From: Laetmonice hystrix
Lineage: Eukaryota
Reading direction: 5' to 3'
NCBI GenBank assembly: GCA_965235115.1
Contig: OZ249436.1
Coordinates: 1,614,001 to 1,678,000, forward strand
Length of the DNA: 64,000 nucleotides
Position 1 is the first letter of the stretch, and each line of letters opens with the position of its first letter. Positions 41,870-43,632 of the stretch are shown one piece after another. The notes beneath the pieces were generated by a model. That model was not told the DNA's origin, did no database searches, and saw only the letters and a list, made by a program, of their open reading frames with translations. The position numbers and the translations under genes were made by a program.

Positions 41870-43632
41870 ATGAGAACGGCATTGATTGTTTGCGTGTTGG
41901 CCGTGGCGCTCGCCATGTTGGTTGTACAGAATGTGTCAGGGTGGCGGAGGCGGGGGCGGTGGGGGCCCAGTAGACGTCCGATATTATGTTTAGTGAGGAA
42001 CGAAACGGATATTATCTGTAACACGACGTCTGAATGTCGAGGGCGACAGGTCTGCACTCCATGTAACGACACCGATATCCTGAATGGTCTTGAAGTTCAT
42101 GTATGTACTAAGGTAAGAGATAAGTTCACGTATGTACTCGGTGACAGGTAAGAGATATGTTCATACTCGGTCACATGTAAGAGATATGTTCACGTATGTA
42201 CTCCGTCAGAGGTAAGAGATGAGTTCATGTATGTACTCGGTCACATGTAAGAGATATGTTCACGTATGTACTCCGTCAGAGGTAAGAGATGAGTTCATGT
42301 ATGTACTCGGTCACAGGTAAGAGATAAGTTCACGTATGTACTCGGTCACAGGTAAGAGATAAGTTGACGTATGTACTCGGTCACAGGTAAGAGATAAGTT
42401 CATGTATGTACTCGGTCACAGGTAAGAGATAAGTTCATGTATGTACTCCGTCAGAGGTAAGAGATGAGTTCATGTATGTACTCGGCACAGGTAAGAGATA
42501 AGTTCACGTATGTACTCGGTGACAGGTAAGAGATAAGTTCATGTATGTACTCGGTCACAGATAAGAGATATGTTCATACTCGGTCACATGTAAGAGATAT
42601 GTTCATGTATGTACTCGGTCACAGGTAAGAGATAAGTTCACGTATGTACTCGGTCACAGGTAAGAGATAAGTTCATGTATGCACTCGGTCACAGGTAAGA
42701 GATAAGTTCACGTATGTACTCCGTCAGAGGTAAGAGATAAGTTCACGTATGTACTCGGTCACAGGTAAGAGATAAGTTCATGTATGTACTCGGTCACAGG
42801 TAAGAGATAAGTTCATGTATGTACTCGGTCACAGGTAAGAGATAAGTTCATGTATGTACTCCGTCAGAGGTAAGAGATGAGTTCATGTATGTACTCCGTC
42901 AGAGGTAAGAGATGAGTTCATGTATGTACTCGGTCACAGGTAAGAGATAAGTTCACGTATGTACTCGGTCACAGGTAAGAGATAAGTTCACGTATGTACT
43001 CCGTCAGAGGTAAGAGATGAGTTCATGTATGTACTCGGTCACAGGTAAGAGATAAGTTCACGTATGTACTCGGTCACAGGTAAGAGATAAGTTCATGTAT
43101 GTACTCGGTCACAGGTAAGAGATAAGTTCACGTATGTACTCCGTCAGAGGTAAGAGATAAGTTCACGTATGTACTCGGTCACAGGTAAGAGATAAGTTCA
43201 TGTATGTACTCGGTCACAGGTAAGAGATAAGTTCATGTATGTACTCGGTCACAGGTAAGAGATAAGTTCACGTATGTACTCGGTCACAGGTAAGAGATAA
43301 GTTCACGTATGTACGCGGTCTCAGGTAAGAGATAAGTTCACGTATGTACTCGGTCACAGGTAAGAGACAAGTTCATGTATGTACTCGGTCACAGGTAAGA
43401 GATAAGTTCACGTCTATACTCGGTCACAGGTTAGAGATAAGTTCACGTCTGTACTCGGTCACATCTGTCGCCGAAAAGTTGATATCGCCTTCCTTTGCAG
43501 AAAGAAGCCGTGAGTTGCAACCTAACAAGTGACTCCCAGCAAACTTTTGACTGTGGTGAGGCGCGCAAGAGGAGTGGTAGGCACCGACCTAGGGTTCGTA
43601 GGCCTAGTCGGTGGGGCCGAAGAGGGGGATGA
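41870..43632 (+). CDS. Gene D: small secreted Cys-rich protein with Arg-rich termini (124 aa; exons 41870-42112 and 43501-43632)
   Basis: TTCCAG|AGA ATG; signal peptide MRTALIVCVLAVALAMLVVQNVSG; donor AAG|GTAAGA; acceptor CCTTCCTTTGCAG|AAA; last exon reads KEAVSCNLTSDSQQTFDCGEARKRSGRHRPRVRRPSRWGRRGG*. Confidence 0.8.
42092..43465 (+). repeat. 35-bp tandem repeat of exon end plus 5' splice site (~38 units)
   Basis: Unit AAGTTCAYGTATGTACTCGGTCACAG|GTAAGAGAT. Confidence 0.95.

Follow-up and report, generated by a model that had tools for sequence, protein, structure and literature searches.

What happens when an intron consists almost wholly of copies of its own 5′ splice site, and how does such an intron come about? 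Two genes of Laetmonice hystrix, here termed D and E, raise both questions. They lie in the window, by which is meant the whole stretch of 64,000 nucleotides analysed (C1:1614001-1678000), close to an end of a contig of 73.8 Mb, in an assembly of 627 Mb and 35 contigs. A gene cluster in the window encodes small, putatively secreted proteins, in which an N-terminus resembling a signal peptide is joined by an Arg-rich stretch and a Cys module, four cysteines of the module being invariant. A search of the genome with exon 2 of D gave 21 matches, all inside C1 1.58-1.67 Mb. D and E are, to judge from their alignment, a recent duplicate pair, their non-coding parts differing at 17/349 positions. 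The features on which the argument depends are as follows.

41569..41576, + strand: TATA-like box of gene D, present in the sequence, with a putative function.
51859-51865: counterpart of the TATA-like box in the sequence of gene E.
41600..41709, + strand: putative non-coding exon 1 of gene D, its start approximate; it ends CAG/GTATGT and has 96% identity to E.
41710..41866, + strand: intron 1 of gene D, 157 nt, free of arrays, with GT-AG ends and a T-rich acceptor.
41867..42112, + strand: exon 2 of gene D, with its ATG at 41870, encoding a signal-peptide-like N-terminus, Arg-rich stretch and Cys module; it ends at donor 1, AAG/GT, in phase 0.
42092..43463, + strand: 35-bp donor-spanning minisatellite of D, ~39 copies, unit 1 being the real exon end.
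42113..43500, + strand: intron 2 of gene D counted from donor 1, 1388 nt, at a phase-0 position common to the paralogs.
43464..43500, + strand: unique tail of D intron 2, 37 nt, with a pyrimidine-rich acceptor; its first bases match the sequence after the donor of paralog C.
43501..43632, + strand: coding part of the last exon of gene D, with 2 Cys and an Arg/Gly-rich cationic tail, its frame kept relative to E.
43710..45062, + strand: minisatellites of the putative 3′ UTR of D, 32 bp x29 and 43 bp x9, with AATAAA at 45104.
52158..52385, + strand: exon 2 of gene E, with its ATG at 52161, ending at donor 1, CGG/GT, in phase 0.
52359..53049, + strand: 35-bp donor-spanning minisatellite of E, ~19 copies.
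52386..53086, + strand: intron 2 of gene E counted from donor 1, 701 nt, with its unique 37-nt tail at 53050-53086.
53087..53209, + strand: coding part of the last exon of gene E, with 3 Cys and a cationic tail; AATAAA at 53853.
37452..38553, + strand: homologous intron of paralog C, with one donor, CAG/GTGAGA, in phase 0 and no donor array; it serves as outgroup for the origin of the array, its acceptor being placed from the aligned next Cys module.

The sequence-only reading had taken intron 2 of both genes to be almost entirely 35-bp copies of the exon end plus donor, ~38 of them in D and ~19 in E, stopping ~35 nt before the acceptor, and this description stands. Tandem Repeats Finder (TRF) reports period 35 in both genes, with 39.0 copies in D (42111-43463, 91% matches) and 19.4 in E (52371-53049, 95% matches), so that the array makes up 97% and 95% of the intron, respectively. 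The 39 donor-like positions of D run from 42113 to 43430 and the 19 of E from 52386 to 53016, and the unique tail ahead of the acceptor measures 37 nt in each. The motif AG/GTAAGA is intact in 33/38 downstream copies of D and 16/18 of E; the others have CAT/GT (three in D, two in E) and, in D, one AT in place of GT and one GTTAGA. The real exon ends of D and E both deviate from the repeat consensus. Over 53025-53086, the last unit of E is open through the 37-nt tail into the last exon (53087-53209) in the coding frame, while a TGA interrupts the equivalent in D; this stop-free read-through is probably chance. The putative 3′ UTRs of the two genes (43710-45062; 53285-53731) are themselves mostly 32-bp/43-bp minisatellite, beginning ~80 nt past the stop.

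Neither chance nor faulty assembly accounts for the array. A 30-letter pattern of the unit, allowing up to 3 mismatches, has 56 matches in 627 Mb, all of them in D and E, and its reversed control has 0, which shows that the array is not a chance occurrence. In reads, word depth summed over three DNA-like runs of one sample is 1017-4142 in the first array bins and 28-78 in most flanking bins (word depth is not copy number, and the sample is possibly the assembly's own source and so not independent). That the array units are deep in the reads, at least for the first three units covered by the interval 41300-42215, argues that the array is not an assembly artefact. Reads of the three runs cross intron 1 without a joint, and are thus DNA-like and uninformative on expression; the single joint seen, from 42209 back to 42111, is the repeat structure. 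A search for sequencing runs containing 41600-43720 brought up these three and no RNA run. A contig assembled from one run, X1 (41617-42140), combines a D-type exon 2 with an exon 1 and intron 1 whose letters are mostly those of E, 13/15 listed variants being equal to E; the mix reflects either an allele that is itself a mosaic or bubble removal during contig assembly.

Is the intron as young as the repeat that fills it? The same phase-0 junction, with one donor, follows the same Cys-module end in paralog C, in four A-type paralogs in the window and in P0013, from another assembly. The intron position is common to single-donor paralogs, and only D and E carry the array. Since the array-free paralogs have a single donor at the same phase-0 position, the intron is, on this comparison, older than the array. 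This bears on the scenario in which the intron was itself created by tandem duplication of an exonic AG/GT stretch (Rogers-type intron gain), a model put forward in a paper (PMC3087553) on lancelet boundary repeats, termed mirages. An intron that is 95-97% array, each unit of which runs from GT to AG, is what that scenario leads one to expect, but the paralogs without an array have the intron at the same position and phase, and the acceptor is in unique sequence outside the repeat. The model requires an intron missing from the paralogs and both ends derived from the unit; neither being so, it was rejected and is scarcely credible for D and E.

The sequence also points to how the array began. 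The exon-derived part of the repeat is closer to the exon ends of the paralogs than to the ends that D and E have today, in-frame changes having since altered these. In paralog C the donor is followed by TCTGTC; the tail of D and E begins with TCTGTC without a donor ahead of it, and once a donor is set before the tail, 13/14 bases agree between it and the start of the paralog C intron. On the simplest account, the ancestor of D and E would have had a short intron of ~45 nt. Slippage would have copied the last 26-27 exon bases into the intron behind the donor; alternatively, the 35-bp boundary could have been duplicated and the last donor lost later. The direct repeat would then have expanded, with unequal exchange keeping its copies alike, either earlier than the duplication that gave D and E or together with it. 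Two unit variants are common to both genes, in 15/38 units of D and 13/18 of E (together 28/56), the remaining 21 variants being private to one gene, and the boundary units are divergent, in that the real exon ends and the last units differ. The array thus shows concerted evolution with divergent boundary units.

Which of the many donors is used determines what is made. As the sequence-only reading had it, donor 1 gives the full protein, donor 2 a phase 2 junction with a stop in the last exon, and donors 3 onward a stop within the array, and the translations agree. The predicted donor 1 product (phase 0) has 124 aa in D and 115 aa in E, that from donor 2 (phase 2) has 96 aa and 90 aa with its stop in the last exon, and that from donors 3 onward, or from unspliced RNA, 93 aa and 87 aa with its stop inside the array. 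Only donor 1 reaches the coding frame of the last exon without an earlier stop. The D/E protein alignment has six indels, all of which keep the frame, and three of these fall in the last exon, in the frame to which donor 1 leads. E has one Cys more than D in each of exons 2 and 3, and its mature Cys count is 10 (even) through donor 1 only and 7 (odd) otherwise; that of D is 8. The frame-keeping indels and the Cys gain paired across the intron of E suggest that the donor-1 product is probably the selected one.

These observations fit best with a minisatellite born locally that started by chance on an existing exon-intron boundary, is tolerated, and is removed whole from donor 1, which we regard as the probable course of events. 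The spliceosome would define exon 2 by its first donor and remove the entire array as one intron to yield the full secreted peptide. The downstream copies, though able to splice, would for the most part stay silent as pseudo-donors; any leak would be small, would go to donors 2-3 and would give truncated products, and the array would be tolerated rather than selected. Several points tell against this. The CAG copies downstream pair better with U1 in both genes; both paralogs have kept the array, which is not so for three of the arrays nearby; and the donor motif in arrays is 1.7-fold over its own reversed control, the highest of the six motifs counted. Among the precedents discussed below, F7 is mammalian and its perfect-consensus downstream sites did take over most splicing, and CBS and IFI6 do splice from two extra donors. 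In addition, a short-intron (intron-definition) system might favour the last donors, which in D and E would leave introns of 71-106 nt.

That the productive donor of E is a poorer match than the copies behind it had been noted from the sequence, as a feature of E alone. The first part is borne out by pairing energies with the U1 5′ end of this genome, -10.3 kcal/mol for donor 1 of E and -11.0 for the common CAG copies; the restriction to E is not, as donor 1 of D, at -9.5, is also weaker than its CAG copies. The strength of the copies is one argument for an alternative, in which downstream donors compete with the weaker first donor and more copies lead to more truncated or NMD transcript, so tuning the output of full-length peptide. 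The stop is at least 60 nt upstream of the junction for donors 4 onward, and only 25 nt (D) or 31 nt (E) upstream for donor 3. By the 50-55-nt rule for the distance between stop and junction, the typical NMD substrates would be the transcripts from donors 4 onward only.

How donors behave in similar arrays is known from other animals, and by its layout the D/E feature is a donor-spanning minisatellite of the 'mirage' or F7/CBS/IFI6 type, a kind already known. Its units are head-to-tail minisatellite copies, the first of them lies, as judged by homology, on the authentic boundary, and the donor is repeated downstream. The lancelet mirages, as described in two papers, are tandem boundary repeats in Adh3, troponin C, the globins BflGb6/BflGb9 and PGBD5, with units of 10-160 bp; many keep AG/GT signals, donors and acceptors are both affected, lengths are unstable, and there is no apparent effect on mRNA splicing (PMC3087553, PMC3902484). 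They evolve in concert with boundary units excluded (PMC3087553). The D/E array is likewise a repeat at an invertebrate exon-intron boundary, with concerted evolution and divergent boundary units. It differs in that it fills 95-97% of the intron, occurs in two paralogs and has an orphan secreted-peptide gene as host.

The closest functional evidence comes from the 37-bp VNTR in intron 7 of human F7, the first unit of which spans the donor and in which the most upstream site alone is used (PMC1557585, Borensztajn et al. 2006). In minigenes the first donor alone was used even with downstream copies raised to a consensus value of 91, and it was perfect-consensus downstream sites, and those only, that took 70-90% of splicing (PMC1557585). 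D and E share with F7 the boundary-spanning first unit, a similar unit length and downstream copies that act, or would act, as pseudo-donors. In F7, however, the 5-9 units contain 4 exonic bases and the sites do not differ from one another, while D and E have 19-39 units with ~26 exon-derived bases and slightly stronger sites downstream, and the F7 spliceosome is mammalian and that of D and E invertebrate. Intron 13 of CBS (15-20 units) and intron 2 of IFI6/6-16 (25 pseudo-sites) both use two extra donors, and the LMNB2 and PDGF arrays use the first donor only, according to the same source (PMC1557585). The copy numbers of D and E are in the range of CBS and IFI6, and leakage to the two nearest extra donors is the pattern to be expected of any D/E leak, though it is documented for CBS and IFI6 and hypothetical for D and E; some leak to donors 2-3 may occur. 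In human segmental-duplication paralogs there are variable internal tandem repeats of ~30 bp at exon-intron boundaries (PMC2812944). These resemble the D/E array in unit size, in position and in differing in number between recent paralogs. They often make new introns or amino-acid repeats, whereas the D/E intron is ancestral and its unit of 35 is not a multiple of three. No donor-spanning units were found in the part of PMC12783039 covered.

The use of two extra donors in CBS and IFI6 also lends something to competition between donors, as do the title of a cited paper and a table row that tie the CBS 31-bp VNTR to lower enzyme activity. Against it, F7 uses its first site only across 5-9 copies and CBS and IFI6 use their nearest sites only, so that total length need not matter (PMC1557585). 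The suggestion of a splicing or NMD rheostat set by repeat number, made from the sequence, is left without support by this known class, in which splicing takes the first donor, either by itself or with the next two. Competition of this kind is unlikely, and it is equally doubtful that an unstable array length sets the ratio of full-length cationic peptide to truncated or NMD-bound product, with weak first donors tuned against the array.

If the stronger copies prevailed altogether, most transcripts would take downstream donors or retain the intron, and D and E would be decaying duplicates. There are 33 donors in D and 16 in E downstream that equal or exceed the first in strength, and in the mature region pN is 0.20 and pS 0.27, a pN/pS of ~0.73 that is not distinguishable from 1 (Fisher p 0.22; few codons). 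Yet neither gene has a stop or frameshift, the coding indels are all in frame, the Cys gain is paired across the intron of E, and the TATA-like box, both introns and AATAAA are intact, which makes such crippling very unlikely. The same ratio was considered for positive selection on the mature peptide, which was set aside, pN/pS being not significant and alignment-sensitive near indels.

The array might also be cut out piecewise, an internal AG/GT acting first as acceptor and then regenerating a donor. Recursive splice sites have AG/GT after a pyrimidine tract and are typical of very long introns. Every intact unit of D and E does start with GT and end with AG, and the acceptor placed in paralog C, at 47% pyrimidine, is as poor as the repeat AG at 53%. 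The three D/E acceptors, however, have 71, 76 and 82% pyrimidines, the introns are merely 0.7-1.4 kb, and the final mRNA would be the same. Recursive removal is very improbable. A further idea from the initial reading, a U1 snRNP sink, in which the pre-mRNA would titrate U1 and so affect splicing or premature polyadenylation of other genes, can draw on up to 34 sites per D transcript with 7-8 Watson-Crick pairs to U1. The genome, however, has at least 42 U1 gene matches and 162,065 AGGTRAG sites, U1 is the most abundant snRNP, and introns are short-lived; the idea is implausible to the point of being virtually discounted.

Other arrays of this genome serve as controls. Minisatellites make up 17.8% of the window as a whole; in 38900-57000 the share is 54%, a local figure near the contig end. 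Four other arrays in or beside the duplicated block vary as much in copy number between D and E with no splice site touched (32 bp, 29 vs 14; 43 bp, 9 vs 1; 24 bp, 1 vs 25), which also counts against a rheostat. Elsewhere in the window, 46223-49439 is a 45-bp array x72, with two open frames of >1000 codons that exist only as the unit is without stops, and no sign of a gene.

Genome-wide, three AGGTRAG at 18-48 nt spacing give 12,841 overlapping matches, and the reversed control 6,927. Per single match, triple matches come to 7.92% for the donor motif, 4.55, 3.87, 5.80 and 7.82% for four non-splice controls and 3.46% for the acceptor; all these figures count overlapping matches, to which long arrays contribute most, and not arrays as such. 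That donor motifs preferentially seed arrays was first suggested by 12,841 vs 6,927 and was dropped when one neutral motif reached the same level (7.82%). Nothing clearly indicates that arrays are seeded by donors or that arrays of this kind are favoured, and the lack of a donor-specific excess over what control motifs show speaks against a rheostat.

BUD31 (Pfam PF01125, E 8e-27), which has one match in the genome, is the clearest further case, ~1 Mb from D and E. Its last intron (C1 ~691,600-692,200) has ~20 units of 29 bp starting from the donor, 17 of them with a GT donor, the last of which leaves 62 nt. Some copies in the array have GC instead of GT. Six donor positions were translated, and the first alone yields the conserved Cys-rich C-terminus. 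That a single-copy gene has the same layout is a further argument against tuning by repeat number. A Lon protease gene (PF05362; C1 ~2,914,400-2,915,900, minus strand) has the corresponding arrangement at the acceptor of its last exon, which is spanned by an array of ~53-bp units; from this layout the array is an acceptor-type mirage.

Among 100 listed matches there were seven other arrays: one clearly donor-spanning (BUD31), one probably so (L046) and one at an acceptor (Lon-like, opposite strand), with L070 ambiguous, L045 and L071 without an adjacent exon, and L040-L044 starting outside the region viewed. L046 is a 29-bp array (C1 ~517,700-520,000), >2 kb long, that starts exactly at the donor behind a candidate 53-nt exon. 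If 9 arrays among 100 listed matches are typical, we would roughly infer ~1000 such arrays in the genome, and hundreds of genes beside BUD31 and Lon protease probably carry them.

What, finally, is the peptide whose gene bears the array? A search for Pfam families in 7 cluster proteins at E 0.1 gave none for 5 and only below-cut-off hits for the other two, and no homolog of D exon 2 was found among proteins of 44-142 aa. A profile of the Cys module gave 5 hits, including P0014; P0013 is a clear relative and P0015 a possible one, while P0012 and P0016, considered as relatives, look like repeat-driven chance hits. No name is attached to any of the 4 profile hits looked up. Look-alikes of the host protein in the Atlas score 0.76-0.77 and are leads only. 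The predicted structure of D exon 2 has low confidence (pLDDT 62), with three strands, and its best structural match, at Z 2.9, shows nothing. D and E have cationic ends where paralogs have acidic Ser/Glu-rich tails. Extracellular matrix, cement or defence peptides would be a guess at the family, made from sequence features.

The two genes are identical in their leader, and divergence in their mature region is four to five times that of non-coding DNA. The identity extends over 110 nt (41836-41945; 52127-52236), taking in the acceptor of intron 1 and the signal peptide in full; the genes differ at ~20-27% of mature coding sites and, in other non-coding DNA, at 5%. The pattern would follow from gene conversion in the leader or from a mature peptide that changes fast. 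Other members of the cluster are repetitive in their own ways. In 1-27000, on the minus strand, are tandem blocks, in each of which an A-type secreted gene is accompanied by an unrelated 106-aa ORF, present once or twice. The A-type gene has two Cys modules, an acidic stretch and variable 36-bp coding repeats of 4-11 copies, and the 106-aa ORF has relatives without names at 39-78% identity and no Pfam family. Paralog F (56205-56800, 57310-57695) has an 18-bp coding repeat x27 and an in-frame stop ahead of any Cys module, and is possibly truncated.

As it stands, the locus adds a clean and extreme example to a class known from lancelets and humans, extreme in that the array is 95-97% of the intron, occurs in two paralogs and has an outgroup paralog that shows how it began. 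It offers a test case for whether the first-donor rule of F7 holds in an invertebrate where splicing from the last pseudo-donors would remove introns of 62-106 nt and, as a second use, for whether array length changes the leak. Were the competing-donor reading true after all, this genome, with BUD31, Lon protease and others, would be a natural series relating repeat length to splice-site choice; and if length tuned the output of a fast-evolving secreted peptide, the array would be a heritable and highly mutable expression dial.
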